46,876 nt of DNA from an uncultured euryarchaeote (GCA_937872085.1 CALMQK010000294.1:1-46876), one strand, 5' to 3'. Shown: positions 13,778 through 40,597, numbered from the stretch's first letter. Numbers and translations are program-made. The notes: generated by a model not told the origin, from the sequence alone.

Positions 13778-14416
13778 TCAAGTCCTCTCGAGCTTGGTCA
13801 GCCACCGGCAGAGCGTGGCTCCCACGACAGATATGTCCTCGGTCGGGAGGATCTTGCCGGCGTTCGCATCGAAGAGGACATTCGCGGAAGTGGGGACCTC
13901 CTCGTCCCCCAGCCATATGACGACGACGACCGGCATCTTGGGGAAGAAATAGGTCTTGAAGCTCACATCCCCCATGTGCATGGGCTCTGCCCGGATCGCG
14001 TCACCGATCTGTCTCAGCACTTCGATCTTCTGACCGAAAGCGCGCGCCAGGAAATCGATGGTCCTTGTCCTGAATGCGCTGTAGTACTGCGCTCCCCCCA
14101 CGAACTCCCGGAAGGTCACGAGCTTGTTCGCGAGCTGCGCATTGCCGGAGCCCTCGAGATAGTGCTGAATCAGTATCCGAAGGTCGCCTCTCACCGGACC
14201 TTGGTCGCTGCGCACATAGGAGATCGTTCTCTCCTCGAGGTCGATGACGCAGTCCTTGTCAAGGACCCTTAGCACGATCTGCTTGGACCCCGGCCTGAGG
14301 CTTCCTCCGGAGTCTGCAGCCAGTCCGGCAAGATCTTTCTTCAATAACCCGGCCCAAGCCACGTCGGCTGCATCTTTGTGAGGATCTCTACCTTCAGGCA
14401 TCGAAGCCACCTTCAC
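13778..14416 (-). CDS. DUF3786-like protein (a family commonly linked to acs clusters)
   Basis: Patterns ILIQHYL, LVTFREFVGGAQYYSAF, VVVIWLGDEEVP and VLFDANA...PTEDI match my recollection of DUF3786. The GTG start overlaps the acsE stop (GTGA). Confidence 0.55.
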   Translation of the reverse strand: MKVASMPEGRDPHKDAADVAWAGLLKKDLAGLAADSGGSLRPGSKQIVLRVLDKDCVIDLEERTISYVRSDQGPVRGDLRILIQHYLEGSGNAQLANKLVTFREFVGGAQYYSAFRTRTIDFLARAFGQKIEVLRQIGDAIRAEPMHMGDVSFKTYFFPKMPVVVVIWLGDEEVPTSANVLFDANAGKILPTEDISVVGATLCRWLTKLERT

Positions 14417-15195
14417 GCCCTCAGGAATGAGTGAGCATATAGTTTCTGGTTGAGGAGGACGTCGGAGGCTTTCGCGATTTGCATCAAACCCTCGTCGTTC
14501 GGATCCACGATCGCAGCATCGACCCCTCTCCCGCGCAGCATCGCAAGGTAGGTCCTGTTCAGCAGGCTCTTCTCCTCAGCTCCGCTCGACACGTTGCTCA
14601 GGCCTACGAGCGTCTTCGGCGGCGGCGAGCTAAGCGCCCGGAGAGCGGTGATTGTCTCTAGCAAGACAGGGCATTGGTCCTGAGCAGCTGTGATGGGGAG
14701 CACGACGCCATCCAGGTAGATCTTCTCCTGGCTGATCCCCTGGTCCATGGCGGTGGTCAGGAGCATCATGGCCAACTCCGTCCTTCCCTCCACGGTATTT
14801 GGGATGCCCTTCTCGTTGATTGTCAGGCACACGATCTCGGCATTGTGCTCCTTGGCGAGCGGTAGGAATTTCTCCATCCGCTTCTGCTCGGCGGTCGTTG
14901 AATTGATGAGCGCCTCGTGCCTGCACTCCTTCAGCCCCGCCTGCTGTGCCTTGAAGCTGGGAGAGTCCAGCGACAACCGAGCGTCGACGCCATCCTGGAT
15001 CGTCCTCACCAGCCAGACCATGTCACCGGCCGGATCATCCCTGCCGGGCCCCGTGTTCACGTCGAGGAGGTCGGCGCCCGCGTCCAATTGCATCCTAGCG
15101 AGTTCCTGTATGAATTTCTCATTTCTCCCGTCGATGGCCTGCGCCACCTGCGGAAACTGGCCGTTGATCCTCTCTCCTATGACTATCGTTCGCAA
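14413..15195 (-). CDS. acsE: Methyltetrahydrofolate:corrinoid/iron-sulfur protein methyltransferase (pterin-binding TIM barrel)
   Basis: IGERING start, LDVNTGPG, and the GLSNVS pterin-binding barrel signature. TTG start directly preceded by GGGGGA. Confidence 0.85.
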   Translation of the reverse strand: MRTIVIGERINGQFPQVAQAIDGRNEKFIQELARMQLDAGADLLDVNTGPGRDDPAGDMVWLVRTIQDGVDARLSLDSPSFKAQQAGLKECRHEALINSTTAEQKRMEKFLPLAKEHNAEIVCLTINEKGIPNTVEGRTELAMMLLTTAMDQGISQEKIYLDGVVLPITAAQDQCPVLLETITALRALSSPPPKTLVGLSNVSSGAEEKSLLNRTYLAMLRGRGVDAAIVDPNDEGLMQIAKASDVLLNQKLYAHSFLRA

Positions 15196-15300: not shown

Positions 15301-17244
15301 TTGACACGTTGTACTCTTCCGGGTTGGTGCCAGGTGGCTAGAGAAGCCAAGCGTAGGTTCAAAGTCACGTTCCCCTCGGACGAAGTGTCGGTCGAAGTTG
15401 CCGAGGGCACGACCCTGCTCGATGCTTGCAGGCTCGCGGAGATAGCCATCGATGCGGTATGCGGCGGAGAGGGCAAGTGCGGAAGGTGCAAGATGAGGCC
15501 GAATGGCTCCTTCAAAGCGACCCCTTCGTCGTTCATCACCGAGGCCGAGGCCTCGGAGGGCATCGTCCTCGGCTGCCAATGCTATGTTCACGGCGACCTC
15601 ACGGTGGAGATCCTGCCGCGCTCAAGGATAGGTAGGCACCAGATACTCACCAAGAGCGTCGCGGAGATACCACACCCGATCCAGCCTTGGGTCTACAAAC
15701 GATTCGTCGAGCTGCCACCGGCGACGATCAACGACAACATCGCCGACTTCGAACGGCTGACCCGGGGGCTCGGGACCATGGGCCTCTGTGCCCCGCTGGA
15801 GACGCTCAACGAGCTCTCGGGTGCGCTGAGGGCCAGCGGTTGGAAGGTCACCGCGACCATATCCAAGATCGAGCCCGTCAACGAGGTCACGCGGGTTGAG
15901 CCTCTCGACAGGGCTGGCACGCTCCTCGGCATCGCGGTCGACATAGGGACCACGACCATGGTAGTGGACCTCGTCGACCTGCACTTCGGAAGCGTCATCG
16001 CGACCGCATCGGACTACAACAGGCAGACTTCGCGAGGGGAGGATGTGATCTCTCGGATGATGTACGGCGAGGAGAAGGGTGGGGACGAACTCAGGGTCCT
16101 CGCCAGGGATACCATCAACGAGCTGATCTCGAGAGTCCTCAGATCGGCCACCATCAAGCTGGGCAAGCGACCCTCTGCGGGGGACGTGGTCGCGGCATCG
16201 ATAGCCGGTAACACGATCATGACCCACTTCTTCCTCGGGCTTGACACCAGACGGATCCGCCTGGAGCCCTATGTTCCCGTCGCATATCATATGCCCTGCC
16301 TGAAAGGGCGGGAGGTCGACCTTGGAATCAACCCGAGGGCGAGAGCGTTCATATTCCCATCGCGCGCGGGTTACGTGGGAGGGGATGTCATCGCGGACGT
16401 GCTCGCGAGCGGGATGCACAGGTCGAATGATCTCACGCTCCTGATCGATGTCGGTACCAACGGAGAGATAGTCCTCGGAGGAAAGGATTGGCTGGCATCT
16501 TGCTCCTGTTCCGCGGGACCCGCGTTCGAAGGGGGAGAGGTCTCGTGCGGCATGAGGGCCATGGAAGGCGCGATCGACAAGATCCGGATCAACGACGACC
16601 TTACATCATCATACCACGTGATCGGCGGGGCTCCCCCCGTCGGGATATGTGGCTCTGGTCTGATCGACCTCGTCGCGGAGATGTACGCATCCGGGATCAT
16701 AGACCGGAAGGCCAGGATCCAGGAGTCCGGGTCCAAGAGGACAAGAGCCTCCGAAAGCGGTCTCGAGTACGTCATCGAGACGAAGGGTAGATTGGGCAAG
16801 GGCGCTTCGGCGGACCTTGTCGTTACGGACGCGGACCTGCAGAACCTCCTGCGGACGAAAGCAGCGGTATTCGCCGCGTGCTCGACTCTTCTGAAGAAGA
16901 CAGACGAGTCGCTCGACGGGATGGCAGGCGTGGTCATCGCAGGTGGGTTCGGATTCCACATCGACATCGCCCGTGCGATATCGATCGGGATGTTCCCCGA
17001 CCTGCCCCAGGAGAAGTACAGGTTCATAGGCAACGGCTCGCTCGGGGGGGCGAGATTGGCCCTGATTTCGGCGAAAAGAAGGAGAGAGGTCGAGGACATA
17101 TTCGAGAAGATGACCTACTTCGAGCTGAGCGTCGATAACGACTTCTACAACGAATTCTCGTCGTCGCTGTTCATCCCTCACACGGACCTGAGCAGGTTCC
17201 CGAGCGTCGCAAGGAACAGGGCTGGCAGGAGGGGGGCGAGATGA
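15301..17244 (+). CDS. Reductive activator of the corrinoid Fe-S protein (RACo/AcsV-like): 2Fe-2S ferredoxin domain plus ASKHA ATPase domain
   Basis: CGGEGKCGRCK plant-type 2Fe-2S motif, then actin-like ATPase motifs (AVDIGTTT, IDVGTNGE, GICGSG). Start is uncertain: TTG at 15301 or in-frame GTG at 15334. Confidence 0.85.
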   Translation: MTRCTLPGWCQVAREAKRRFKVTFPSDEVSVEVAEGTTLLDACRLAEIAIDAVCGGEGKCGRCKMRPNGSFKATPSSFITEAEASEGIVLGCQCYVHGDLTVEILPRSRIGRHQILTKSVAEIPHPIQPWVYKRFVELPPATINDNIADFERLTRGLGTMGLCAPLETLNELSGALRASGWKVTATISKIEPVNEVTRVEPLDRAGTLLGIAVDIGTTTMVVDLVDLHFGSVIATASDYNRQTSRGEDVISRMMYGEEKGGDELRVLARDTINELISRVLRSATIKLGKRPSAGDVVAASIAGNTIMTHFFLGLDTRRIRLEPYVPVAYHMPCLKGREVDLGINPRARAFIFPSRAGYVGGDVIADVLASGMHRSNDLTLLIDVGTNGEIVLGGKDWLASCSCSAGPAFEGGEVSCGMRAMEGAIDKIRINDDLTSSYHVIGGAPPVGICGSGLIDLVAEMYASGIIDRKARIQESGSKRTRASESGLEYVIETKGRLGKGASADLVVTDADLQNLLRTKAAVFAACSTLLKKTDESLDGMAGVVIAGGFGFHIDIARAISIGMFPDLPQEKYRFIGNGSLGGARLALISAKRRREVEDIFEKMTYFELSVDNDFYNEFSSSLFIPHTDLSRFPSVARNRAGRRGAR

Positions 17245-17996
17245 CCTACGTGATCGCGGTCGCCGGAAAGGGTGGAGTGGGCAAGACGACCTTCGCGGCC
17301 TTGGCGGTCCGCCATCTGTGCGATGCGACCGGGGACGTCGTGCTCGCAGTGGATGCGGACCCGAACTCCAACCTGGGAGAGAAGCTCGGGACACCCCCTG
17401 GAAGGACCTTGGGAGATATCAGGGAGGAGATGCTGGTCAACGGAGACGAGCTGCCCAAGGGCGTGTCGAAGCAGGAACACATCGACTACCAGATCAGGCT
17501 CGCGCTGAAGGAAGGGCACGAGTTCGACCTCCTCACGATGGGGAGGCAGGAGGGGCCGGGCTGCTATTGCTACGTCAACAACATGCTGAGGACCATCGTG
17601 GATTCGTTGGCGGACAGATACAAGTACGTGGTGATAGACAACGAGGCTGGCATGGAGCACCTGAGCAGGAGGACGACGAAGAGATCCGATGTCCTCTTCG
17701 TCCTCCACGACGGGTCGAAGGCATCACTCGAAGCCTCCCGGAGGATCTCGGCCCTCGCCGACGAGATGAAGATCAAGATCGGTCGAAAGGCGCTCGTATG
17801 CAATCTCCTGAGCTCCGGTTCGGAGGCCCTCTCGATCCCCGAGCTTCCAGGCTTCGATGCGGCCTACGGAATCAGGAGATCGAGCAAGATACAGGCCAAG
17901 ATGGTCGAGATGGAATCCCTCATGGACATCCCGAAGACCGACCCAGCGTTCTCGGACGTGGCCAGAGTCGTGGATGCGGAGCGGAAGAGGAACTGA
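17241..17996 (+). CDS. CooC/AcsF-type Ni-insertion NTPase
   Basis: Deviant Walker A GKGGVGKT at the N-terminus and the CXC metal-binding motif (GPGCYCYV). The ATG overlaps the RACo stop (ATGA). Confidence 0.85.
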   Translation: MTYVIAVAGKGGVGKTTFAALAVRHLCDATGDVVLAVDADPNSNLGEKLGTPPGRTLGDIREEMLVNGDELPKGVSKQEHIDYQIRLALKEGHEFDLLTMGRQEGPGCYCYVNNMLRTIVDSLADRYKYVVIDNEAGMEHLSRRTTKRSDVLFVLHDGSKASLEASRRISALADEMKIKIGRKALVCNLLSSGSEALSIPELPGFDAAYGIRRSSKIQAKMVEMESLMDIPKTDPAFSDVARVVDAERKRN

Positions 17997-17998
17997 GC

Positions 17999-19327
17999 TC
18001 AGACGGACATCGCTTTCAGAACCTTCGGCAGCCCCGAGGACTCCCTCGGCCCGACGACGACCTTCATGTTCGTCAGCTCGTTGAGCTTCCCGCTCATCCT
18101 GCTGACCTGACCCGGGATCATAAGCTCGTTCCTCGTGTTCTTCTCCTTGACCTTCTCGGCCTCGATGGCCTTGGCCACGGATTCCGGTGTCAGCTTACCC
18201 GCAGCGAACGCGGTCATGACGGACTGACCGTCCGTGTCGACGACGAGCAGCCAGACGGGCAACTTGCTCTTCTCTATGTCCGCCCTGACCGTGAAATATG
18301 TCAGCGAGAAGTTGCTCGTGAAGAGCACTGGCGATTTGTCGGTCGGCTCACCGACTTTGTAGAGGCCGGCCTTGACCTGGATCGGGACCTGTGGATCCGT
18401 GAATATGTTCTGCCTCAAGGCCATGAGCGGGTAGATGAACTCTCTGGACACGTCCTCCATCAACACCATCGACGAGTACTTCATCACACCAAGCGCGGCC
18501 TTGATCTCATCTCGGGGCGATTTCCCAAGGACCGTCACTGTCGGGTATCCCAGCGGCCTGAACTTCTTCTTTATGGCCGCCCTTCGAATCGTAGTCAACT
18601 TCTCCAGCATATCGTTCGCGGTCGACCCGGACGGCTCGAGGACGAGGTCCACCACGCCTGCTTTCTTCGCCTTCTCGGTGAGCGACGACAGTTCCTCGGC
18701 GCTCGCAGTGCCTCCGATCACCAAGGGGAAGGCGCATGCTTTCGCGACGGTGATCATATCGTCGAAGTTCTGCGGGGTCGCACGATACAGGAGCGGCCTC
18801 CCCGGCGCGCACAGCGCAAGAGCCTCCGCCATGAGTTTGGGGTCTTCGGTCATGATGGTGACGGGAAGCCCGATCCCAGCCGCATACCTGACCGCGTCGA
18901 GGAATTCCTGAGGCGTGCCCGTGGAGTGCCTGACGGCCACGGAGTCAACACGGATGATCTGTCCCACTCTCTCGAATGAGAGGGATCTCGCAGTCTCCAG
19001 CTTGGCCTTGACCATGTCGATTCCCTCGGCATCGTCCGCGATGATCCCCAGGACCGTCGGGTGGAAGAACGCCTTGTCGTGCCTGAAGAGCTGTGTCTCG
19101 TCCCCGATCTTGGCAGCGGCATCCGCAGTGCCGAACGTGACCAGCTTGATGGGGGGCGCTCCGCTCTCTTCGAGCGCGACCTTCGCTTCGGGGCTCACGT
19201 ACGGGCATGCGGCCAGCGCGACCTTCTGGTTAGCCAGCTGCATCGCGAACGCGAGGCATGTCGGGAACTTACACTCGCCGCAGTTCTTCTTCGGAAGCAA
19301 CTTGTAAATCTCCATGGCCGTCGGCAT
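17999..19327 (-). CDS. acsC: Corrinoid iron-sulfur protein, large subunit
   Basis: N-terminal 4Fe-4S motif CGECKFPTCLAF...ACPY, followed by TIM-barrel and corrinoid-binding regions. 442 aa. Confidence 0.9.
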   Translation of the reverse strand: MPTAMEIYKLLPKKNCGECKFPTCLAFAMQLANQKVALAACPYVSPEAKVALEESGAPPIKLVTFGTADAAAKIGDETQLFRHDKAFFHPTVLGIIADDAEGIDMVKAKLETARSLSFERVGQIIRVDSVAVRHSTGTPQEFLDAVRYAAGIGLPVTIMTEDPKLMAEALALCAPGRPLLYRATPQNFDDMITVAKACAFPLVIGGTASAEELSSLTEKAKKAGVVDLVLEPSGSTANDMLEKLTTIRRAAIKKKFRPLGYPTVTVLGKSPRDEIKAALGVMKYSSMVLMEDVSREFIYPLMALRQNIFTDPQVPIQVKAGLYKVGEPTDKSPVLFTSNFSLTYFTVRADIEKSKLPVWLLVVDTDGQSVMTAFAAGKLTPESVAKAIEAEKVKEKNTRNELMIPGQVSRMSGKLNELTNMKVVVGPRESSGLPKVLKAMSV

Positions 19328-19329
19328 TC

Positions 19330-20292
19330 CTAAACGCCTCCCATCAGGTCAGCAAGGGCGTCCTTGAGTCCTGCCACCGCCTTCGGATGGCGCATCACGA
19401 CCATGTCCGCTCCAGCGACGAGCGCGGAGTACGCAGTGATCTTCTCCCAGTTCTGGCCCCTCAGCTCCGACCTCCCCTTATCCAGGCTCTCTTCCACCGC
19501 GTCCGGAACGGTCCAGGCACAAGAGCAGTCGCAAAGCATCGGCATCTGCAGGACCGGGTCCCCAGAAAGCGCGCTCTGCCTCAGCCGCTCGATCACCGAA
19601 TACGAGTACTCCAGCCCCATCCCCAGGGCCGCCATGAGAGGGTCCATGATGATGTTCTCGGGCTTCATGCCGAAGTCCAGCAACAGGATGTTCATCTGCT
19701 TCGCGAGGTTGATGTCAAGGTTGGAGAACGCGACGATCCCGTGGCCGTTTGCCATCGCGGCGGCGGTGATGGACTTGTACGCCTTCTCCTCTGCCTGTCC
19801 GAGAAACAGCTTCTCACCCTTCGCGGCGTTCGAGACGGCCTCCATGAGCTTGGCATCCTTCTCCTCGGATCCGCAGCCGTAGACGATGAGCGGCAGGGAT
19901 ACCGATTTCAGAACCTTCTGGACGAGCGACACGCACTCCTCCACCGGCCTGTTCTCCTCATCCGGGTTGGCGGAAAGAAGCCTCAGGAGCAGGACATCCG
20001 CGCCCCATTCGCTCTCGCACTTCCTCGCCCACTCGACTGGATCTTTGACGACGGGGCCCATCGAACTGACCAACTGATCAGGAACGACGCGCATCGTGTC
20101 GACTACGTCCATGGCCACGAGCGGCTTGTGAGGCATCTCGCTCTCGAATCTGTGGAAGGGTAGCCCGTTCGAGCCGCCCAGTACAAGTCTGACACTCCTG
20201 GTGCCACCCTGTTCCTTGGTGGCGCCTATCGCTACTTCCCGTATCCTTCCTTGAAATTTCTCTTTCGGCACTTCAAAGGCCATTCCCGTCAC
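19330..20292 (-). CDS. acsD: Corrinoid iron-sulfur protein, small subunit
   Basis: 320-aa TIM-barrel protein starting ...FQGRIREVAIGA..GGTR. It sits 2 nt upstream of acsC and 9 nt downstream of the CODH/ACS ORF. Confidence 0.85.
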   Translation of the reverse strand: MTGMAFEVPKEKFQGRIREVAIGATKEQGGTRSVRLVLGGSNGLPFHRFESEMPHKPLVAMDVVDTMRVVPDQLVSSMGPVVKDPVEWARKCESEWGADVLLLRLLSANPDEENRPVEECVSLVQKVLKSVSLPLIVYGCGSEEKDAKLMEAVSNAAKGEKLFLGQAEEKAYKSITAAAMANGHGIVAFSNLDINLAKQMNILLLDFGMKPENIIMDPLMAALGMGLEYSYSVIERLRQSALSGDPVLQMPMLCDCSCAWTVPDAVEESLDKGRSELRGQNWEKITAYSALVAGADMVVMRHPKAVAGLKDALADLMGGV

Positions 20293-20301
20293 CTCTGGTC
20301 T

Positions 20302-23300
20302 TCAAGTCATCATAGGAGGCATCCTCAGGGCTGGATGGTCCACTTTCACCAGCCAGTTGCTGAGCTCCTCAGGGGTCTTGGCGACCGTCTCATCGGCGAT
20401 CTTGCTCACAAAGTCTGGCACGCCTGCCTCTGCGGCCCTCTTGTTGAGCTCCTCCTTCATCGCCTCTTTCAGGTCCTTTGGCATCCAGACGATGCGCAGG
20501 AAGCCGCCGTCCGCGCTGATGAACTTCTTGCTAACAATGTATCTTCTCCCGACTCCGATGAAGCCGGGCATCTGCACCCCGCCCCCGATCGAGCCAGCGA
20601 GAGTCGAGAACGACATTCCGAGCGGGGTCATGCCGGAGTGCTCCCTGTTGACCACAACAACGCCCTGAAGATCCGGGGACACTCCGACGATGCACTCGAA
20701 GCATCCGCACGACGTCATCGGGTCCTCCATCATCGTGTATGCGCTGAACTTCTGCAACTTGCCGTGAGTCTTCTCTACAACGACCTCGTTCACGCCGCTC
20801 CACTGTCCCTTGACCGGGTCGATGGTCTCCTTCTTCGGGACCGGGTTGTTCGGGCCCGTCGGCGCGATCTGGAACGATGCTTTCGCGTCCAACCAGTTGA
20901 TGGCTCCGCAGAGGCCCAGCCGCTCGGGCGTGACTATGCACAGGTGGCCGGGCGCGAAGCTCTGGCAGAGCGAGCAGGTGTAGAACGTATCGACTCTCTC
21001 GTCGGTGAGGTCCGCGATCCTGGCGTCTCTCTCGGCATAAGACACCTTCGCCTCGTCGACATGCTTGCGCAGCTCTGCCTCATCTGTGATGATCGTGACT
21101 TCGATCTTCGAGACGATCGCGCCGAACTCCTGCTTCATCTTCGTGACGAGGATGTCCCCGAAGTGCTTCAGCCGCAATCCGGCCTTCACGGAGTTCTTGC
21201 TCAGCCTGATCCACAACAGGTTCCTCTGGCCCGTATGCCACGCGCCCTCGGCGAAGTTGGTGAACTGGTGTATCCTCCGCTCCAGGACCGACTCGAAGTC
21301 CTTCTGCATGTTCTTGCCGTAGACATTGACGAATATCCCCAGATGGATCGATGCCCCCTCCGCCATCTGGTCCACGTCCTTGCCAATGAGCGTGATCTTC
21401 CCGTCGTTGACCTCCTCTGCGTTCCTCATCTTGAGCAGTTCGAACGCGAGCGTCTTGGACGGACCGCCCGCCTCGATGTACATGTCCGGCCTGCGTATGG
21501 TCTCGCCCTCGAAAGCTGGCCCGTACGGGACTGGCAGGTCGATGGCTCCCAGCTTTATGTGGCAGCCCCTGACCTCGATCGCCGTGGAGATCATCTCGTC
21601 GAGGTTCTTCTGCACGACGTACTTGTCGGGGATGGGCTCAACATCTTGGTCGGTGATCGTCGGCGAGCCGTTGAACATCACAGCGAACTCGGCGGCCACC
21701 TTGATGTCATCGAGCGGCCCGAGCTGGAGGACGAACACCTTCGGCCTCTTCAAGAGATACTTGAGCAATCCCTCGCGGTCCCCCTTCTGGACTCCGCCGA
21801 ACGAGAGCGCCGCCCTGATCGCGAAATTCAGACCGTGTATTATCTGAGTGAACTCTCCGACGGGGTACAGCATCCGGTCGAGCCCCATCGCGATCTTCTC
21901 ATCCTTCAGCTGCTGGATTATGTCGTAGGTGGCGATGATGAGCATGCCCTTGTTCTGGCAGTCCCGGATCATCTTCGCCAGCTTCTTCGGGTCGCTCGCC
22001 TTGCCGACGAAGACGGCGGCGCCCGGGATCGTGTCGTCGACGAATGCGATCCCCAGCTGCCTCAGGATCCTGTCGGGGATGAAACCGCAGTACGGGGTGC
22101 CCTCGTATGGAGTCGGGGTCTCGATGTACTTCAGCGCCTCGACGACTTCCGCGGCTATCATCGTCGCCTCACCGGAGGCAATCGCCGACTCGAGCGTCGG
22201 AACCTCGTCGATCTTGCCCCTTGCTTCACCCATCAGCCTCGGCAGGTCCCCTAGCTTCGTGATGTCCTTGCCAAGCCACGCGAACAGGCTCGGCAGCTGG
22301 TAACCGGTTTCCGGGAACTCCACCTTCTTGTCAGGACCGTACTTCCGCAACGCCTTGTTCAAGAGGATGTCCGCATAACCAGTCGCGATGATGGACCCCT
22401 CGATGGCCATCTTGAATAGCTTCTCTTTCGGGATCCTGTCCTTCTGTGGAACGTACGATGATGCGCGCTCAAGCTCGGGGTCAGTGATGCCCAGCTTCCA
22501 CCGCCTGTACTCGATCGCTGAGTAGAGCCTCTTCGCAGCCTCCTTCGGGTCCGGTTCGAAGATGAAGTAGCCACCGTAGACGTCCCTCGCGGTGTTCTCC
22601 AGTACTTCCGTCACGAGGGTGCTTCCGTAAATGTAGTTGATCGTTCCGACGTGGACTGGAAAGCCCATCGCGACGGCCCATGTGCCGATCGAGACCGCCT
22701 TCTCGTGCATGGCCTCGGGCGCGATCGCGACGAACGGTATCTTGTCGATGTCTACGCCCATCCTGTTCGCAATCTCCGTCGCGAGGTTGGAGAATCTGGG
22801 ATTGTCGACGCAGGAGCCGATGTGCCAGACGCAGGGCAGGCCGCTCTTGATCCCGGCAGCCTCGCTGAGCTCGGTGAGGAAGGACTGGAGACCTTCTCCA
22901 GCCAACTCAGAGGTCTTCCCGGGGTCCATGAAGCCCGCCTTGGCCAACTCGATCGCGTTGCAGCCCGTCGCGAGGCAAAGCACGCCGTGCTTCGCGAGCT
23001 CCCGCGCGATCGTGAGCACGCCCTCATCGTCCTTGGCCCTGGTGCTCTTGCAGCCGGCGAAAAGTGCGACTCCCCTGACACGTCCGTTCACGAGGTTGTC
23101 GACCAGGAACTGGAATGGGTCGTCCTTGTTCTTCTTGGAGAAGAGCTCCTTGATCTGCTCAAGGCTGAATCCCGCGACGACCCTCGATGTCTTCACCGTG
23201 GGCAGGAGTTTGGTCTTCCCGCGGTGCTTGAAGGCCTCCGCGGCCATCAGCAAGATCTCCTTGGCCGACGCTCTGGCCCTGTCGGGCGTGAATTCGATGT

Positions 23301-24456
23301 GGGTGTCTCCGACAAGCCTCGCCGCTTCCTCGGTCGAGATCAATTTCGTGTGTGTGCAACGGGCGAGAGTGGACAGGGACGGCATGAAACACTGGTAGTC
23401 CAGGACCATCGCGTCAAGGAGCCCGCTCAAAAGCACAAGCTCCTGGTTGAGGACGTTTGCGGCGATCGGGACACCTTTGCGCATGAGGATCTCATTCCCC
23501 GTGCAACACACGCCGACGATGTTGAATCGGTCCGCGCCGACCTTCTTCGCTTCATCCTTCATCTCACGAGAGACATCGACCAGAATGTCGCTCAAGAGCG
23601 GGTTGTGGCCGTGGACCGCGACGTTGATCGACTTCTCGTCGAGCACCCCCAGGTTCGCCTCGCTGAGGACGAGCTTCGGCGTGCCGAAGAGGACATCGCT
23701 CAGGTCCGAGGATATCTGCGCACCCGCGTAGTCCGACAGAGCGCACTTTATCCCGCCGAAGAGAATCGGAATCGGGTCTGCGTCGACCCCCATCGAGGTC
23801 CGGTGCATGACATCCGAGATCGAGGTCTCGATGTTGGAAGGAAGGACCGCGTGTGTGTCCCAGAGGAGAAGCCTCCCCTTGGTCACCGTGGACTTCAGAA
23901 ACGAGAGCGGTTCGTCCGTGTATCTAGAGTAATCCTCGAGGGCCTCTATGGACACAAGTTCGGCGAGGTTCCCCTTTCCCTGGATCCCCAGGCGCTTGGC
24001 GATCGCCTCGAGCTTCTGGCTGTCCGTGACCTTGTAGTCCTTCGCCTCACCCTTGCTGACCGCGTGAAGGACATGTGCTATCTCCTTGCCGTGGGCGGAG
24101 TGCGCCGCAGCCCCGGCGGCGATCATCCGGTCGATGTTCCTCGAGACTATCGTGTAATCTCTTGCGCCGCACAATCCCGTCGTCGGCTCCTTGCCCATGG
24201 GATTGATCCTGCACGGACCCTGAAGGCAGATCCTGCAGCAGAGACCGAGCTCTCCGAACCTGCACTGCGCTCCCTGGTTCGTAATCCTGTCAGCATAAGT
24301 ATGGATGCCCGAGTCGTGAAGGCTTGTGAGCATGGAAGCGCAGCTGCTGTCCCAGCAGTCGCAAGCGAGTCCCTTCTTGGCCTCACCCTTGACCGGGGCG
24401 GACTTTGTCTTGGTGACCACTTCTGATTCCAAACTATACCACCTTGAGATGCCCAC
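20302..24456 (-). CDS. Fused Ni-CO dehydrogenase (AcsA/CooS-type) and acetyl-CoA synthase (full-length bacterial AcsB-type), 1384 aa
   Basis: N-terminal half: CRFGELGLCCRICLQGPCRI (B/D clusters) and C-cluster contexts HGHNP, VCCTGNE, GSCVDN. C-terminal half: AcsB N-domain (GYADILLNKALRKYGPDKKVEFPETGYQLP) and A-cluster motifs CSLCQSFAPGHLC...LCG and SCGCFEC. One uninterrupted frame. GTG start at 24456, or possibly the GTG at 24420. Confidence 0.9.
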   Translation of the reverse strand: MGISRWYSLESEVVTKTKSAPVKGEAKKGLACDCWDSSCASMLTSLHDSGIHTYADRITNQGAQCRFGELGLCCRICLQGPCRINPMGKEPTTGLCGARDYTIVSRNIDRMIAAGAAAHSAHGKEIAHVLHAVSKGEAKDYKVTDSQKLEAIAKRLGIQGKGNLAELVSIEALEDYSRYTDEPLSFLKSTVTKGRLLLWDTHAVLPSNIETSISDVMHRTSMGVDADPIPILFGGIKCALSDYAGAQISSDLSDVLFGTPKLVLSEANLGVLDEKSINVAVHGHNPLLSDILVDVSREMKDEAKKVGADRFNIVGVCCTGNEILMRKGVPIAANVLNQELVLLSGLLDAMVLDYQCFMPSLSTLARCTHTKLISTEEAARLVGDTHIEFTPDRARASAKEILLMAAEAFKHRGKTKLLPTVKTSRVVAGFSLEQIKELFSKKNKDDPFQFLVDNLVNGRVRGVALFAGCKSTRAKDDEGVLTIARELAKHGVLCLATGCNAIELAKAGFMDPGKTSELAGEGLQSFLTELSEAAGIKSGLPCVWHIGSCVDNPRFSNLATEIANRMGVDIDKIPFVAIAPEAMHEKAVSIGTWAVAMGFPVHVGTINYIYGSTLVTEVLENTARDVYGGYFIFEPDPKEAAKRLYSAIEYRRWKLGITDPELERASSYVPQKDRIPKEKLFKMAIEGSIIATGYADILLNKALRKYGPDKKVEFPETGYQLPSLFAWLGKDITKLGDLPRLMGEARGKIDEVPTLESAIASGEATMIAAEVVEALKYIETPTPYEGTPYCGFIPDRILRQLGIAFVDDTIPGAAVFVGKASDPKKLAKMIRDCQNKGMLIIATYDIIQQLKDEKIAMGLDRMLYPVGEFTQIIHGLNFAIRAALSFGGVQKGDREGLLKYLLKRPKVFVLQLGPLDDIKVAAEFAVMFNGSPTITDQDVEPIPDKYVVQKNLDEMISTAIEVRGCHIKLGAIDLPVPYGPAFEGETIRRPDMYIEAGGPSKTLAFELLKMRNAEEVNDGKITLIGKDVDQMAEGASIHLGIFVNVYGKNMQKDFESVLERRIHQFTNFAEGAWHTGQRNLLWIRLSKNSVKAGLRLKHFGDILVTKMKQEFGAIVSKIEVTIITDEAELRKHVDEAKVSYAERDARIADLTDERVDTFYTCSLCQSFAPGHLCIVTPERLGLCGAINWLDAKASFQIAPTGPNNPVPKKETIDPVKGQWSGVNEVVVEKTHGKLQKFSAYTMMEDPMTSCGCFECIVGVSPDLQGVVVVNREHSGMTPLGMSFSTLAGSIGGGVQMPGFIGVGRRYIVSKKFISADGGFLRIVWMPKDLKEAMKEELNKRAAEAGVPDFVSKIADETVAKTPEELSNWLVKVDHPALRMPPMMT

Positions 24457-24812
24457 GTACTCTACTGAGGCCCAGTGGAGTTTCCCGCGTCCTCGAAGCC
24501 CGAACTACTATGAGAAAGTGTTGAATGTCGTTCAAGTCAATCGTCGATATCGGGTCCCCGACATGGGAATCAAACGAGCACACCTCCTGTGCATGCGCGT
24601 AGGGATGACTGCACGCGCAACATCCGCAACGAACTTGGGTGGAAACCCCCACTGCATTACCGAACATCTGGCTTACCGGTGACGCCCGCTTTCGAGGTCG
24701 ACATCTGACGAATAGACATGACGATACTAATACGTTGTTGTAACTCCACTTTCGGCGTATGACGAATAACTGGTCAAATGACGGCCGCAAGGAGGCGCCT
24801 GGCCTGCCGGGT

Positions 24813-25646
24813 TCAAGTAGCGGATATCTTTGAAATCTTTTCCGAAAGCTGTCTGACGGACGCAAGCCACCTTTCCGACCCGCTCACCGCAAAGGGTGAC
24901 ACACCAAGCAGCTCAGCCTTTGCCACGGCCGGAGAATACGGAACCGCATGCGTGAGCTCGAGCCCGCGCGCCTGGAGCATGCGGACGATCGCATCTCGCT
25001 CTGCTGGATTCCTCACCCTGTTCGCCACGAGAGCGGTCTTCCTCACGCCCATTTCCACTGACAGCTCGGTGATCCTGGAGGCGGTCTCGATGGACTTGAG
25101 GCCAGGCTCCACTACCACCAGCATCAGGTTGACGCCACGGCAAGTCGACCGCCCGAATTGCTCAAGACCGGCTTCCATGTCCACGATAACGGCCTCGTCC
25201 TTCTCGAGAATCATATGCTCGAGCAAGCTGCGAAGAATGGCGTTCTCAGGACAGAAACAGCCGCTGCCCACAGACCTGATCGTCCCCAGCACGAGCAGCC
25301 TGACCCCGTCTGCCCCGACCCTCGAGTATTTCTCGGGGATGTCGTCCACCTTGGGGTTGAGCCTGAAGAAGGGACCTGATTGCGCGCCAGGTCTGGCACC
25401 CGTTCTCTCCTCGATCAGGTCAAGCTCTGAGGAGATGGGCAGTGGGACCGACCCCGTTGGAATCTCGAGAACCGTGTGGAGGTGCGCGGCAGGATCCGCG
25501 TCCACGGCGATCACCTTCAGGCCGTCCCTCGCCCAGAGACGGGCCAGCGCCCCTACGATGGTGGTCTTGCCGACGCCACCCTTGCCCGCCACAGCTACCT
25601 TGAGACCCACTAGATCAGCTCTATACCGGTTTGAGAATGATCTCAT
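24813..25646 (-). CDS. cooC: CooC-type Ni-insertion NTPase
   Basis: GKGGVGKT plus the CXC motif (GSGCFCPEN). The track start overlaps cooT by 26 nt. An in-frame GTG at 25610 (VGLKVAVAGKGG...) is an alternative start 10 nt past the cooT stop. Confidence 0.85.
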   Translation of the reverse strand: MRSFSNRYRADLVGLKVAVAGKGGVGKTTIVGALARLWARDGLKVIAVDADPAAHLHTVLEIPTGSVPLPISSELDLIEERTGARPGAQSGPFFRLNPKVDDIPEKYSRVGADGVRLLVLGTIRSVGSGCFCPENAILRSLLEHMILEKDEAVIVDMEAGLEQFGRSTCRGVNLMLVVVEPGLKSIETASRITELSVEMGVRKTALVANRVRNPAERDAIVRMLQARGLELTHAVPYSPAVAKAELLGVSPFAVSGSERWLASVRQLSEKISKISAT

Positions 25647-25847: not shown

Positions 25848-26252
25848 TCAGTCACACGAGCAATCAGCGATCTGACAAGCGACCTTCTTGGCCTTATCGT
25901 AGTCGTTGACCACGAAGACGAATCTCATCTTCGCCCCGTTCTGTCCGAGGAGATAAGAGCCCTCGAGCTCGACCCCGGCATTGGTCATCTGACTTGCAGC
26001 CCTGAACCACTGCCCGGGCCTGTTGATCATCTCGATGACGAGGACCTTCCTCTCGCTGTACGTTAGGTCGGCCTTCATGAATGTCCGCCTGCACTCCTCC
26101 TCGAGGGCGGTGACGAACCTCAAGACATATTTGTCCCCGACCTTCCGCGCGGCTATGGTATCTAGATTGATGTTGTGCTCCGAAAGCACGGACACGGCAT
26201 CCAGCAAACTCCTAGACGTTCCCGGGACGTATAGCTCGAACTCGGTTGTCAT
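25848..26252 (-). CDS. Tandem ACT-domain protein (134 aa)
   Basis: Two beta-alpha-beta-beta-alpha-beta-like repeats (ELYVPGTSRSLLDAVSVLSEHNINLDTI... and VIEMINRPGQWFRAASQMTNAGVELEG...). GGGGGAG SD-like element 8 nt upstream of the ATG. Confidence 0.5.
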   Translation of the reverse strand: MTTEFELYVPGTSRSLLDAVSVLSEHNINLDTIAARKVGDKYVLRFVTALEEECRRTFMKADLTYSERKVLVIEMINRPGQWFRAASQMTNAGVELEGSYLLGQNGAKMRFVFVVNDYDKAKKVACQIADCSCD

Positions 26253-36556: not shown

Positions 36557-38719
36557 CTAGCGGCTTCGACTCTCCTTGAACTTCTTCAGCTCTTCCTCCA
36601 CCAGCGCCTCGTAGTCTTGAGTCTTGGCTGGAGGTGGAGCGACCTCCTTCTTCCGGTCTGGCGTACCCGTTCTCGCATCGATCTCCTTCGGCTCCTGTTG
36701 CCAGACCGCTGTCCTTATCGCGAGACCAATTACCAGCAGACCGAATCCGCCCCACAACGCGTTCATCATCGGAACGACTTTCATCTGCACCAGGGCCGTC
36801 GTGTTGCTCATCCACTGGAAGTCCAGATAGAGGTCGTTTGCCAGGGACTTGTAGACGTAGACCTCGGCGTCGACGACCTGGGTCTCCACACCTCTGATCA
36901 GGTAGAGGTCCGTCAGTACAAGGCCGGAACGGAGGGCGTGGCCGGACTTCATTACATCCATCGTGCCCTCTCGAACGGCATTCACGCTCGTCGCTCCCGA
37001 ACCTGAACTCACGTCGCTGGCAGTCAGTGCCACCAGCCGCACCGTGTAGTCACCGACCTTCGCCTCTTGGCCGAGAGACATCTCGATCGAGGTCGTGCCG
37101 CTCACGAGATTAGAAGGGAAGGACTGCATGTTCGTGGATATGATGAAACTCACAAGGACCATGGCGACGCCCAGGTGGATGAGGTGTGGGCTTGCTTTCT
37201 GAAACGTCTTCCTGGCGGAGCCCACGACCCGCGATCTCGCAAGCTTCACTATCGAGACCCCGAGCGCGACCGCATAGGCTGGAAGGCTGAAGGCGACGAG
37301 AGCATCGATCCAGCCGGTCACGGCGCCAACGACCCCTGCCGCGATCGATGCCACGATCAACCCCGAACCAAGATAGAACGCGATCTCCTTGCCGGTGAAC
37401 TTCCAGACCAGGCATATGCTCATGGTCGTCATCAATCCCACGAAGAATATGGACAACTTCTGGTTGAACTCCGCGTAGTTGGACCCCTGTGATGCGTTCA
37501 AGTTCTTGAACATGAGCAGCACCATCACAGCACTCGTGATGACGAGCAACATGACCGTCAACATCGTGTTGTTCTTGTCGCTGATGTACTCGCTCAGCTT
37601 CTCCGGCTCGGGTTGCTCTTCTGGTCTTTCCATGGTCCTGTACCGCGAATACGCCAAGAACACGGTCAGGGCGAACAGTGTCAACATGAGAGAGAAGATG
37701 CCAAGAATAGTGCCATCGTTCTGGAGCAGGTACGAAAGCCTCGCGCTGCCGCTGGTCCCTACCGAGCTCCCGAAATTGTGCACCGACTGGGCCCACACGC
37801 TGCCTGCGCGGGTGGCGAACGTTGCGAAGATGACCGCGACGAACGAAAGCATGCCCAGCACCGGGGACCAGAGCTTGTACTCCCCCTTCCTCGAATGTCT
37901 TACGACTGTGTGCAGGAAGGCGCTGGTAATCAGCCATGGCAGCAACGAGGCCGTCTCGACCGGGTCCCAGGCCCAGTATCCACCCCAACCGAGCACGTAA
38001 TATGCCCATATGGCTCCGACACCGATACCCAATGTGAGGAAGATCCAGCCAAGCCTGGACCATGGGAGCGATATCTTGAACCAATTCGGATCGTCCGAGA
38101 CAAGATAGGCGAGCGCTGCCGCGAAGGCGGCGACGCAGAAGGCGTACCCGGCGAACACCACTGGAGGGTGGAGCACCATCTCTGGGGTCTGAAGCAAGAG
38201 ATTCATCCCGTATCCGTTGGGCAACCATGTCTGATTGAAGCTGCCGGTCCTGGCGAAGAGGTCCATCTGCCAAAGCAGGATCATGAAGAGAGATATGATC
38301 GCCGCTACGGTCGCCTGGAACGCGCCATGGAACTTGCTGCCAAGGTACTTCCTCTTCGGCTCCAAAAGGACCTCGACCACGAGCACCAGGGCCATGAACC
38401 ATATCCAGAGCAGGAACGAGCCTTCCGCGCCCGCCCACACACCGGAGAGCTTGTACACCGCGCTCAGGTCCGTAGATGAGTTCGACCAGACGTAAAGGTA
38501 ATCCATGTTCGACGACAGGAAATAATCCGTTAGCAGCAGCAGAGCCGCGCTGATGGAGACGAATGTGAGGACGGATAGCACGACCGAGGCCTCCGTCAAG
38601 AGCCTGTCCTTGCGGCCCATGGCAAGCGTCCTAGCAAGAGCCGCGCCGATCGCGGCCAATGTTCCGATGACGATGAGGGATTCACCAGCGTCCATGTCTT
38701 CAGCCTCCGCTCGACTCAT
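36557..38719 (-). CDS. ccmF: Cytochrome c-type biogenesis protein CcmF (haem lyase component)
   Basis: WWD motif WGGYWAWDPVETASLLPWL. About 15 TM segments over 720 aa. Confidence 0.9.
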   Translation of the reverse strand: MSRAEAEDMDAGESLIVIGTLAAIGAALARTLAMGRKDRLLTEASVVLSVLTFVSISAALLLLTDYFLSSNMDYLYVWSNSSTDLSAVYKLSGVWAGAEGSFLLWIWFMALVLVVEVLLEPKRKYLGSKFHGAFQATVAAIISLFMILLWQMDLFARTGSFNQTWLPNGYGMNLLLQTPEMVLHPPVVFAGYAFCVAAFAAALAYLVSDDPNWFKISLPWSRLGWIFLTLGIGVGAIWAYYVLGWGGYWAWDPVETASLLPWLITSAFLHTVVRHSRKGEYKLWSPVLGMLSFVAVIFATFATRAGSVWAQSVHNFGSSVGTSGSARLSYLLQNDGTILGIFSLMLTLFALTVFLAYSRYRTMERPEEQPEPEKLSEYISDKNNTMLTVMLLVITSAVMVLLMFKNLNASQGSNYAEFNQKLSIFFVGLMTTMSICLVWKFTGKEIAFYLGSGLIVASIAAGVVGAVTGWIDALVAFSLPAYAVALGVSIVKLARSRVVGSARKTFQKASPHLIHLGVAMVLVSFIISTNMQSFPSNLVSGTTSIEMSLGQEAKVGDYTVRLVALTASDVSSGSGATSVNAVREGTMDVMKSGHALRSGLVLTDLYLIRGVETQVVDAEVYVYKSLANDLYLDFQWMSNTTALVQMKVVPMMNALWGGFGLLVIGLAIRTAVWQQEPKEIDARTGTPDRKKEVAPPPAKTQDYEALVEEELKKFKESRSR

Positions 38720-38847
38720 CGATGCGCTTCATTGCCCGCTAGCTCCTTCTTGTACGAGGCGCTGAGATTCCCGCAGACCTTGGCGTCGACCTTCCCCTTC
38801 TCCAGCGCCCTGTCGAGGGCGACGATGGCGTCCATCAGTTTGCTCAC
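38716..38847 (-). CDS. Candidate 43-aa ORF between ccmE and ccmF
   Basis: GTG at 38847 preceded by GGAGGG with 5-nt spacing. Its stop overlaps the ccmF ATG (ATGA). Translation: VSKLMDAIVALDRALEKGKVDAKVCGNLSASYKKELAGNEAHR. Too short for the ORF track. Confidence 0.3.
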   Translation of the reverse strand: MSKLMDAIVALDRALEKGKVDAKVCGNLSASYKKELAGNEAHR

Positions 38848-38892
38848 TGATACCCTCCTTGACAGACTGTCTTGAAATCGGATCACCGTCAC

Positions 38893-39282
38893 CTAGTACT
38901 TCGACGCGCAGCCAACGGTGAGATCGGTCGCGATCATGTGCAGGGACGGCACGTCATCGAGCTGCCCCTTCGCCCCGACGGTCTTGCCGTTCTCGAAACC
39001 CGATGGCAACGGCCCGGTCATCGTCACGTTGATGTTGCCACCCGAAGCCGCATTCGTATCGAACAGCGTGAAGTTCCTGCTCCCGGGGTCTCCGTTCCAG
39101 TCAGCAACAACCCCCCTGACCTCGATCGGTTTACCCGAGTATTGTGAAGGGCTGTGGACGACGTCGCTCACGGACAGGTAGTTCTGTCCACCAGTCGAGC
39201 TCCAGCCCCAGAAGACGACGACCAGGGCAGCCGCGATCACAACAAGGGCAACGATGACCTTCCTCTTGCGACGCCTCGACAT
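38893..39282 (-). CDS. ccmE: Haem chaperone CcmE, CXXXY variant
   Basis: N-terminal membrane anchor, OB-fold-like core (IEVRGVV...FTLFD), and a C-terminal CASKY in place of the HXXXY haem-binding motif. Confidence 0.8.
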   Translation of the reverse strand: MSRRRKRKVIVALVVIAAALVVVFWGWSSTGGQNYLSVSDVVHSPSQYSGKPIEVRGVVADWNGDPGSRNFTLFDTNAASGGNINVTMTGPLPSGFENGKTVGAKGQLDDVPSLHMIATDLTVGCASKY

Positions 39283-39322
39283 CGGTCGGGGCGGGCTGGG
39301 AAGTTCTGGGTTCGGGGGCGAA

Positions 39323-39475
39323 TCACTTGCCGTGCTTCGACACCTCCTCCTTGAGCATCTTGATGTCCTTGTCTATCCTGCGCTGCCTCAGGTACATGTA
39401 CCCGAGGAAGGAGAACAGGCCGAGCCAAACGATCGAATAAGCGACATACAACGCCGTCCACGAATCCGACATCAT
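39323..39475 (-). CDS. ccmD: Haem exporter protein CcmD (50 aa)
   Basis: Hand-translated: MMSDSWTALYVAYSIVWLGLFSFLGYMYLRQRRIDKDIKMLKEEVSKHGK. One TM helix followed by a basic tail. The ATG overlaps the ccmC stop (ATGA). Position between ccmC and ccmE is canonical. Confidence 0.6.
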   Translation of the reverse strand: MMSDSWTALYVAYSIVWLGLFSFLGYMYLRQRRIDKDIKMLKEEVSKHGK

Positions 39476-40596
39476 TCTTCATCTCCTATCTTACGCTTGA
39501 GTTCTTCCAATTCTTCTTCAGCTTCCGCAATCTCCACTCTCTTTATTAGCATTGTTATGAACAGGACCGTGAACGCGACGACCGCTATGCCTATGGTCAT
39601 GCCGGCCTGCGGGGACAGACTGCCGCTGCTGGTCGCGATGACCTGTGGATGGCTGGATTGCAGCAGCGGGGCCACTCTCGAGGACAGGAAACTCATCGGC
39701 ACGGTGATGAAGCTGAGTATCCCATAGACCGCGCTCACCCTGGCCTTCGCGCTCGGTTCGCTGATCGCGGCTCTCAAAGACAGATAGCCAATATAGACGA
39801 GCCAAAGGACGAAGGTCGTGACCAGCTTCATGTCGTCCCAGCGCCAATAGACCCCCCACTCCTGCCTAGCCCAGACTGGTCCGGTCGTGATGGCGATTGT
39901 AGCGAAGACTATACCAATCTCTGCAGAGGAATACGCCACTCTGTCGTACTTGTGATCTCTAGTCCTTAGAAAGAGGGCGCTTCCGACCAGTGTGACCCCA
40001 AATGAGAGGTAGCACGCCCACGCGGACGGCATGTGGAAGTAGAATATCTTCTGGGCGACAGGGGCGGTCATGAGCCCGAAGCTTCCCACCGAGCCAAATG
40101 TAATGTCATTTCCGCTTCCGCTTGAAAGCGAGAAGCCTGTCACGTTAGAATTCGGGGCAATCGTGTTTGAGGTGACGATGCCGTCCATTGACAGATTGGC
40201 ACCAACCACAATTACACCACCCAGGTTTGGACCCATGCGGGGATTCAAGCCTCCTGAGATTGACTTGATATCTATCGGTCGTACTGTCCACCATTGTTGA
40301 TTCAGACTATGGGTTGCATTGGCCTGCAGATATCGCCCGTAGTCACGGAAATCTGCAAGCGAGAAGATTACCTCATCTGGCCCGTCCAGCATACCGAAAT
40401 GGATAGAGTAGACAGCGGACACGAATCCCGCAACTTTGAGCTTTGATCCTTCCACCGAAGACAAAATCTCGCCTGCCGATTTCACGCCGGTTTGGGGCAG
40501 AGGAGCGAAAAAGACTGCAAGATAGACCGTCATCAGGATCAAGACGACGGAGACCACCACCAGAATCGTTCCCAGTTTCTTCCTGTCCATCCTCAT
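39472..40596 (-). CDS. ccmC: Haem exporter/haem-handling protein CcmC with a large inserted extracytoplasmic domain
   Basis: QKIFYFHMPSAW (first His loop) and WWD motif WARQEWGVYWRWDDMKL. At 374 aa it exceeds the usual ~250 aa because about 140 residues are inserted after TM1. Confidence 0.85.
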   Translation of the reverse strand: MRMDRKKLGTILVVVSVVLILMTVYLAVFFAPLPQTGVKSAGEILSSVEGSKLKVAGFVSAVYSIHFGMLDGPDEVIFSLADFRDYGRYLQANATHSLNQQWWTVRPIDIKSISGGLNPRMGPNLGGVIVVGANLSMDGIVTSNTIAPNSNVTGFSLSSGSGNDITFGSVGSFGLMTAPVAQKIFYFHMPSAWACYLSFGVTLVGSALFLRTRDHKYDRVAYSSAEIGIVFATIAITTGPVWARQEWGVYWRWDDMKLVTTFVLWLVYIGYLSLRAAISEPSAKARVSAVYGILSFITVPMSFLSSRVAPLLQSSHPQVIATSSGSLSPQAGMTIGIAVVAFTVLFITMLIKRVEIAEAEEELEELKRKIGDEE

Positions 40597-40597
40597 A

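Follow-up and report, generated by a model that had tools for sequence, protein, structure and literature searches.

Can both catalytic subunits of carbon monoxide (CO) dehydrogenase/acetyl-CoA synthase (CODH/ACS) be supplied by a single archaeal gene? The question is raised by a stretch of 46,876 nucleotides (nt) from an uncultured euryarchaeote (GCA_937872085.1, CALMQK010000294.1:1-46876; hereafter the window), in which a first-pass annotation had proposed that AcsA (the CODH) and AcsB (the ACS) are encoded as one polypeptide of 1384 amino acids (aa). The Wood-Ljungdahl pathway has CODH/ACS as its central enzyme, one that serves as a textbook example of substrate channelling between two subunits. 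Profile searches and alignments to sequences in the PDB bear out the fusion reading, in that they resolve a complete CODH, a complete bacterial-type ACS with its docking domain, and a short linker between the two. We find that the window probably encodes a genuine single-chain bifunctional CODH/ACS of a Thermoplasmata-lineage archaeon, operating by the whole of the mechanism proposed below, a reading to which we assign a probability of roughly 0.8.

An open reading frame (ORF) scan recovers the uninterrupted minus-strand frame that had been described, consisting of 1384 codons (20302-24456) that run from a GTG at 24456 to a stop codon at 20302-20304, and each of the motifs quoted in the first-pass annotation is found in its translation. 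The real start is probably a TTG at 24432, which would give a product of 1376 aa, because the N-termini of homologous fused proteins begin at window residue 9 in alignment and the sequence AGGTGG lies 6 nt upstream of this TTG. Searches against NCBIfam models place the two halves separately, with a CODH at residues 36-657 (TIGR01702) and a bacterial ACS at residues 685-1383 (NF040764).

The assignment of the first ~650 residues to CooS/AcsA holds over the full length of the family model, since TIGR01702 (CODH catalytic subunit) is matched from position 3 to 621 of 621, at 659 bits against a cutoff of 478. Pfam places Prismane/CODH (PF03063) at residues 72-638 (486 bits), and a PDB sequence search aligns residues 36-657 to CODH-II of Carboxydothermus hydrogenoformans through to the natural C-terminus of that enzyme, while identity to the AcsA proteins of Moorella thermoacetica and C. 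hydrogenoformans is ~46 % across 630 residues. The ligands of CODH-II (C39, C47, C48, C51, C56, C70, H261, C295, C333, C446, C476 and C526) are all present, as are its catalytic His and Lys (H93 and K563) in a pairwise alignment. In an alignment of 121 sequences, conservation at the catalytic His and Lys and at the ligand positions of the D-, B- and C-clusters is either complete or no lower than 93 %, and the deviations are N-terminal truncations. Moreover, the CODH fold in the structure model described below matches CODH-II structures in Foldseek with a TM score of 0.95 and a root-mean-square deviation of 1.8 Å over ~628 columns. The module is a complete clade-F-type Ni,Fe-CODH. Ahead of its core lies a CxCx4C motif (CxCWDxxC, residues 32-39) that is confined to the subclade of the window protein (identity of at least ~78 %) and is variable within it; positioned upstream of the D-cluster, it might hold an additional metal or cluster. 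For the fused RBG proteins discussed further below, the same feature is recorded as 'a Cys3 motif at the N-terminus' (Inoue et al. 2019, Supplementary Table 1).

The last ~720 residues had been read as a full-length bacterial-type AcsB that includes the N-terminal domain, and this is confirmed both by PF18537 and by a match to every position of NF040764 (1-705 of 705), at 967 bits against a cutoff of 800. Pfam divides this half into CODH_A_N (698-778), CdhC (974-1128) and ACS_CODH_B_C (1140-1383), and in the PDB sequence search residues 679-1383 pair with residues 20-729 of Moorella ACS (825 bits), with the alignment of Clostridium autoethanogenum ACS starting at residue 3 of the latter. Archaeal CdhC lacks A1, the N-terminal ACS domain that docks onto CODH. 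The [4Fe-4S] cubane ligands of the A-cluster are Cys1161, Cys1164, Cys1173 and Cys1183 (Moorella C506, C509, C518 and C528) and the Ni-Ni site is bound by Cys1250-Gly-Cys1252 (Moorella C595-G-C597); all of these are invariant in 121/121 sequences. Additionally, the positions of Moorella A110, A222, A265 and F512, which from mutagenesis and xenon studies we take to line or gate the tunnel, carry identical residues in the window protein (F512 corresponding to Phe1167), and are invariant or nearly so among homologues.

A separate observation concerns the same A-cluster motif. Two fused homologues of 1894 and 1896 aa (P0083 and P0108) are interrupted by an intein of 538 aa, in which splicing and LAGLIDADG domains are present, and one intein-bearing locus (L036, 4294-9981) lies in the Methanomassiliicoccales metagenome-assembled genome (MAG) SMAG_U14898. 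The insertion site falls between the equivalents of Leu1163 and Cys1164 (FYTCxL|intein|CQSF), which means that a cysteine ligand of the [4Fe-4S] cluster serves as the +1 extein residue.

The junction, which had been expected at about 22420-22500, is located by the ends of the CODH-II and ACS alignments at a 22-residue linker (nt 22420-22485), which sits between the natural C-terminus of the CODH and the first ACS-homologous residue. A junction of this kind could be an artefact of assembly or sequencing, if an indel or one wrongly called base had merged adjacent acsA and acsB genes in this contig. The sequence of the window is single and unverified, and in the nearest unfused relative only 16 nt separate acsA from acsB, such that one error could merge them. 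However, the junction DNA is free of stop codons and its homopolymers do not exceed 4 nt, and homology to CODH reaches the natural C-terminus while homology to ACS starts where the C. autoethanogenum ACS itself starts. Furthermore, the same in-frame junction recurs in public data from four sources. A search of 5.8 billion proteins gave 167 matches at E <= 1e-50, and the best 120 of these, which are clusters at 90 % identity that are 57-97 % identical to the window protein, were analysed. Drawn from ENA, JGI, NCBI and Logan assemblies, they are nearly all ~1,350-1,390 aa in length, each contains the four Pfam domains, and 120/120 are in frame through the junction in a MAFFT alignment.

The search of related genomes that the first-pass annotation had called for likewise found the fusion. 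With a junction-spanning alignment as the query and one genome per GTDB species, the scan gave 228 relatives, of which the best 80 were retained, and query residues 1-181 are matched as one segment in 80/80 of them. Three closed MAG chromosomes (CP070748, CP070732 and OY969924) are among the carriers. Complete stop-to-stop frames of 1328-1896 codons, with CODH and ACS motifs both present, occur at ~56 of the 80 loci, while a further 11 are cut by contig ends and 7 were missed by the motif regular expression only.

Variation in the linker itself offers a further source of evidence. Natural linkers are 16-30 residues long and differ in sequence and length by subclade, with length changing in steps of whole codons, a pattern that argues against an artefact. 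The types include a short form ('...LGLDHKYV--RESR...'), that of the window ('ITDPELERASSY--VPQK') and longer forms ('...DVVYWDGTT..DER' and '...ELDGGVTYWNGTTPD...'). Between the window and 30 complete-frame loci of equal linker length, nucleotide diversity at the three codon positions is 0.35/0.24/0.48 in the linker as against 0.12/0.04/0.41 in the flanks, which is a relaxed yet coding-type pattern. The fusion is a genuine gene, whose reading frame has been preserved in no fewer than 80 genomes at species level. Because protein clusters, genome loci, linker variation and codon pattern agree, an artefact is excluded for the family, and is very unlikely for this particular contig.

How such a chain might fold and work was approached with an AlphaFold2 model of residues 30-985 (CODH, linker and A1), computed as a monomer from an alignment of 102 fused homologues. 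The model has a mean predicted local distance difference test score (pLDDT) of 86.4 and a predicted template-modelling score (pTM) of 0.90. Its linker (model residues 628-650) forms a short helix with pLDDT of ~85-94, and the prediction is thus of an ordered, packed segment and not of a loose tether. Confidence is low in the N-terminal extension, around the D- and B-cluster cysteines, and at the cut C-terminus; around those cysteines, both the dimer and the clusters would be required. A Foldseek search with the model found no PDB chain spanning CODH and ACS modules (maximum query-normalised TM score 0.64).

Under the mechanism that we propose, two copies of the protein would pair by way of their CODH modules into an (alpha-beta)2 assembly, the covalent equivalent of the alpha2beta2 complex of Moorella. 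CO2 would be converted to CO at the C-cluster, and the CO would reach the A-cluster through the conserved hydrophobic tunnel in the chain's own A1 domain, and could combine there with CoA and a methyl group that the AcsCD corrinoid protein supplies, forming acetyl-CoA; synthesis of acetyl-CoA and the reverse reaction are equally possible. The tether would set a 1:1 stoichiometry and ensure co-assembly of the two modules, leaving the chemistry unchanged. The earlier suggestion that the fusion fixes both stoichiometry and tunnel geometry is plausible, and the AlphaFold model is consistent with it without amounting to proof. A structure prediction had also been proposed as a check on whether the linker can bridge the two modules in a Moorella-type architecture; the model, with its ordered linker and pTM of 0.90, is consistent with such bridging, and the interface would be of Moorella type.

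An alternative hypothesis is that one chain is translated but two parts do the work, either through cleavage of the linker after folding or through an internal start for the ACS, with a non-covalent alpha2beta2 complex as the result. The linker is the most variable segment of the protein, and in the window an ATG (Met683, ...LFKMAIEG...) occurs just past it. We rejected an internal translation start at this codon, since Met683 is not conserved (several subclades have LFKKAIDG) and no Shine-Dalgarno-like motif precedes it. With respect to cleavage, a linker modelled at pLDDT 85-94 is unlike a typical protease-accessible loop, and an open frame maintained over at least 80 species would be unnecessary if the separate products were functional. 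Two working parts from one translated chain are therefore unlikely, and a functional single chain is favoured.

A second alternative accepts the fusion but not its assembly in the manner of Moorella. In this case, A1 might sit on the partner protomer through a domain swap, or adopt the position seen in C. autoethanogenum (6ytt), with the gas channel rerouted. The structure of the C. autoethanogenum enzyme reportedly shows a second CODH-ACS docking geometry beside that of Moorella, and a linker of 16-30 residues would permit several geometries. Yet both halves of the window protein are nearer to their Moorella and C. hydrogenoformans counterparts (ACS ~825 and 810 bits; AcsA ~625-636 bits) than to those of C. 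autoethanogenum (697 and 422 bits), the Moorella tunnel positions are conserved, and the single-chain model is confident at a pTM of 0.90. We consider a non-Moorella arrangement distinctly unlikely.

Several points nevertheless count against a single covalent chain with Moorella-like channelling. The linker is the least constrained segment of the protein, and for this reason proteolytic processing within it may occur. The equivalence of the predicted CODH-A1 interface to that of 1OAO and 7ZKJ, with docking in cis, is inferred, and the ~150 kDa single chain is predicted from the sequence. Finally, six of the best 80 loci (L019, L043, L056, L062, L064 and L074) are shorter, or lack one motif set, and are not cut by contig ends; these may represent sequencing errors in MAGs, or real disruption or pseudogenisation.

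Where the fused gene came from can be approached through its nearest unfused relatives. In an exhaustive HMMER search of representatives at 50 % clustering, with residues 110-1309 as the query, one full-length fused representative (P0112) was recovered together with fragments, and the next matches were unfused ACS proteins of ~730 aa (at most 51 % identity) and unfused CODHs of ~670 aa (at most 46 %). When each half is placed in its own neighbour-joining tree, the fused sequences group together as a single clade in 30/30 bootstraps, the internal subclades agree between trees, and the window protein falls within this clade in 30/30 bootstraps for both the CODH and the ACS half. Both half-trees give the same single clade, which indicates that the fusion arose once and that the two halves have co-evolved since.

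The sister of the fused clade in the CODH tree (P0129) is the acsA of a bacterial-looking operon, cooC-acsA(672 aa)-16 nt-acsB(726 aa)-acsC-RACo-cooC-acsD-acsE (L083), which resembles the window in the order and orientation of cooC-acsA-acsB but differs in retaining a stop codon and the 16-nt spacer. In the ACS tree the sister is a Methanomassiliicoccaceae AcsB (P0124; L081/L082, 8001-10193), whose locus has an ACT-domain gene upstream and acsD-acsC-cooC(-)-RACo(-) downstream. This downstream synteny is shared with the fusion loci, but the acsB, unlike theirs, has no adjoining CODH gene, none having been found at the locus. We considered whether P0124 had secondarily lost its CODH half, and rejected this because the protein is a neighbour-joining sister that does not lie inside the fused clade; a clade of the fused set plus P0124 is found in 0/30 bootstraps. 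Fusion of neighbouring operon partners is a common evolutionary event, and here the fused frame could have been produced if acsA, with acsB directly behind it, lost its stop codon and a short spacer was read through; such stop loss would be a sufficient mechanism.

The genomic surroundings of the fusion are those of a full bacterial-type acs cluster, with genes for AcsC, AcsD, AcsE, CooC/AcsF and RACo (the reductive activator of corrinoid protein) all within 11 kb (Table 1). The order fusion-acsD-acsC is retained in ~60 related loci, members of the subclade of the window also keep the ACT-cooC pair upstream, and the ACT-domain protein is a candidate regulatory partner of the acs operon. The spacer between cooC and the fusion (24457-24812) is unusually long and non-coding, with a terminator-like hairpin at 24578-24596 (-), and an Rfam scan of it gave no match. 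Rfam, tRNA and promoter/terminator scans of the operon region returned nothing informative.

Table 1 Positions of the fused gene, its modules and the neighbouring acs genes in the window
Feature	Position	Strand	Basis
Fused acsA::acsB ORF	20302..24456	-	ORF scan, Pfam, NCBIfam, PDB sequence search
N-terminal CxCx4C motif (Cys32, Cys34, Cys39), ahead of CODH core	24340..24363	-	Alignment
Ni,Fe-CODH (AcsA/CooS) module, residues 36-657	22486..24351	-	Pfam, NCBIfam, CODH-II alignment, Foldseek
Linker, residues 658-679 (TDPELERASSYVPQKDRIPKEK)	22420..22485	-	Homologue alignment, CODH-II and Moorella ACS alignments, junction DNA
ACS domain A1, residues 680-966, CODH-docking, tunnel-bearing	21559..22419	-	PF18537 at 698-778; Moorella ACS alignment, residues 20-312
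ACS domain A2, residues 967-1133	21058..21558	-	PF03598 CdhC at 974-1128; Moorella ACS alignment
ACS domain A3, residues 1134-1384, A-cluster ligands	20305..21057	-	PF19436 at 1140-1383; Moorella ACS alignment
ACT-domain protein, directly upstream of cooC	25848-26252	-	Kept there in 29 related loci
cooC-type Ni-insertion ATPase, 356 nt upstream of fusion	24813..25646	-	Upstream position kept in L001-L031
acsD-like corrinoid iron-sulphur protein (CFeSP) small subunit, 9 nt downstream of fusion	19330..20292	-	PF03599; immediately downstream in 63 related loci
acsC-like CFeSP large subunit, FeS and CdhD domains	17999..19327	-	Domain match; conserved in 59 related loci
Second CooC/AcsF-type P-loop ATPase	17241..17996	+	Domain match, synteny
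RACo, reductive activator of corrinoid protein	15301..17244	+	PF14574, PF17651, PF17650, Fer2
acsE-like pterin-binding methyltransferase	14413..15195	-	PF00809
DUF3786 protein beside acs genes	13778..14416	-	PF12654

The window also contains archaeal hallmark genes (Nep1/EMG1, PurP with DUF1246/DUF1297, and a KaiC-like ATPase), and named carriers of the fusion are nearly all MAGs of Thermoplasmata, Thermoplasmatota, Methanomassiliicoccales or unclassified Euryarchaeota, e.g. RBG_13_57_23 and UBA10834, the latter an order that is reportedly 'Ca. Gimiplasmatales' (PMC9239135). Judged by its gene content and relatives, the host is a Thermoplasmata-lineage archaeon; that it is an archaeon had gone unrecognised in the first-pass annotation. 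A few carriers are labelled Halobacteriota, Methanomicrobia or Bathyarchaeia (L063), and one fusion-bearing contig of 9.3 kb (L050, DASPRZ010000008.1) is labelled 'Candidatus Acidiferrales bacterium'. The latter is probably misbinned, and labels outside Thermoplasmatota/Euryarchaeota such as those of L050 and L063 reflect either misbinning or lateral transfer of the fused gene. Elsewhere in the window (36557-41988, minus strand) lies a system-I cytochrome c maturation cluster, which encodes CcmB, an ABC ATPase, a CcmF-like protein (720 aa) and a second Cytochrom_C_asm protein (374 aa) and hints at c-type cytochromes in the same organism.

The first-pass annotation had also presented the fusion as an architecture not known to have been described. 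This claim fails, because public data hold many examples of the fusion, in at least 120 protein clusters and in the best 80 of 228 genome loci, and because it has already been listed and annotated, in that JGI product names of many homologues join both functions and two proteins are listed as 'fused with ACDS beta subunit', ACDS being acetyl-CoA decarbonylase/synthase (Inoue et al. 2019, Supplementary Table 1). The two fused Ni-CODHs in question, OGS41472.1 (RBG_16_62_10, 1275 aa) and OGS44063.1 (RBG_13_57_23, partial), are filed there under 'others' among the clade-F Ni-CODHs, with no analysis of distribution, origin, linker or function, and the main text states that fused CODHs 'were also manually searched' and nothing more (Inoue et al. 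2019). RBG_13_57_23 is among the loci of our genome scan (L008), and is 83 % identical across the junction. With the fused proteins of that table the window protein shares a clade-F-like CODH and a C-terminal ACS, and they form a monophyletic group. The occurrence of AcsB in these archaeal groups is noted in a preprint of 2026 that treats ACS phylogeny and leaves the CODH fusion unmentioned. We found no discussion or characterisation of a CODH-ACS fusion in the searchable main texts, which covered Zinke 2020, Loh 2020 and Adam 2022 together with texts on Yaplasmales, Slate River, ACDS, Methanoperedens CO, CODH context, Asgard wetland and syngas microbiomes, although an earlier description may exist. 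The architecture has thus been sighted before, yet is unanalysed and uncharacterised in the searchable literature.

We lean slightly towards a broader hypothesis, under which a single acsA-acsB fusion took place within a bacterial-type acs operon, in the ancestor of a large group of archaea related to Thermoplasmata/Methanomassiliicoccales, and then spread to a few other archaeal lineages. In its product, nature would have its sole bifunctional CODH/ACS made as a single polypeptide: an (alpha-beta)2 enzyme that is obligately covalent, whose linker is structured and whose CO channel runs entirely within one molecule, undescribed bar two lines of a supplementary table. If true, it would provide the simplest natural scaffold in which to express or image the complete catalytic unit from CO2 to acetyl-CoA; with the fusion, heterologous expression requires half as many catalytic genes, and structural biology is offered a complex that is unable to dissociate. 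A natural covalent fusion kept over a long period also constitutes independent evidence for the 1:1 CODH-A1 contact as the functional unit. For comparative genomics, the fusion represents a clean synapomorphy with which to follow the spread of the bacterial-type acs operon among archaea, and for annotation it matters in that one or other of acsA and acsB can go unrecorded when Thermoplasmatota are surveyed by marker genes.

Set beside known systems, the window protein does not belong to the archaeal ACDS of the CdhA/CdhC type. It shares the same overall chemistry and an archaeal host with ACDS (CdhA-E; 9C0S, 3CF4), and the A2/A3 core of its ACS is homologous to archaeal CdhC (TIGR00316, 455 bits), although the cdhC models of NCBIfam match residues 973-1378 only. 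Unlike ACDS, its CODH is not of CdhA type (TIGR00314, 47 bits against a cutoff of 781), its ACS possesses A1, CdhB is absent, and its CFeSP genes are acsC/acsD-like. Other fusions exist within the CODH/ACS pathway, but none joins the two catalytic subunits. In Desulfomonile tiedjei (WP_014808137.1; Inoue et al. 2019, Supplementary Table 1) the CODH is fused to ACDS delta, a different partner from that in the window, and in P0128, P0131 and P0133 an ACS carries a C-terminal extension of ~550 aa, so that partners and order again differ. These three belong to a set of unusual architectures seen in the representative search (P0128, P0131, P0133, P0136, P0143, P0152 and P0156), among which are CODHs with N-terminal extensions of ~300 or ~550 residues, the ~550 type resembling the ACDS delta-CODH of Desulfomonile.

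The CODH/ACS enzymes recovered by the PDB sequence search have separate subunits in all cases. With those of M. thermoacetica and C. hydrogenoformans (alpha2beta2; 1MJG, 1OAO, 7ZKJ) the window protein shares two full-length modules, an ACS of three domains with A1 among them, all ligands of the D-, B-, C- and A-clusters, and the tunnel-lining residues, and its gene has the same surrounding acsC, acsD, acsE, cooC and RACo genes. The operon partners of the canonical complex are therefore present, but AcsA and AcsB are not encoded by separate genes; unlike the Moorella and C. hydrogenoformans enzymes, that of the window is one polypeptide with a 22-residue linker, resides in an archaeal host, and bears the N-terminal CxCx4C motif of its subclade.

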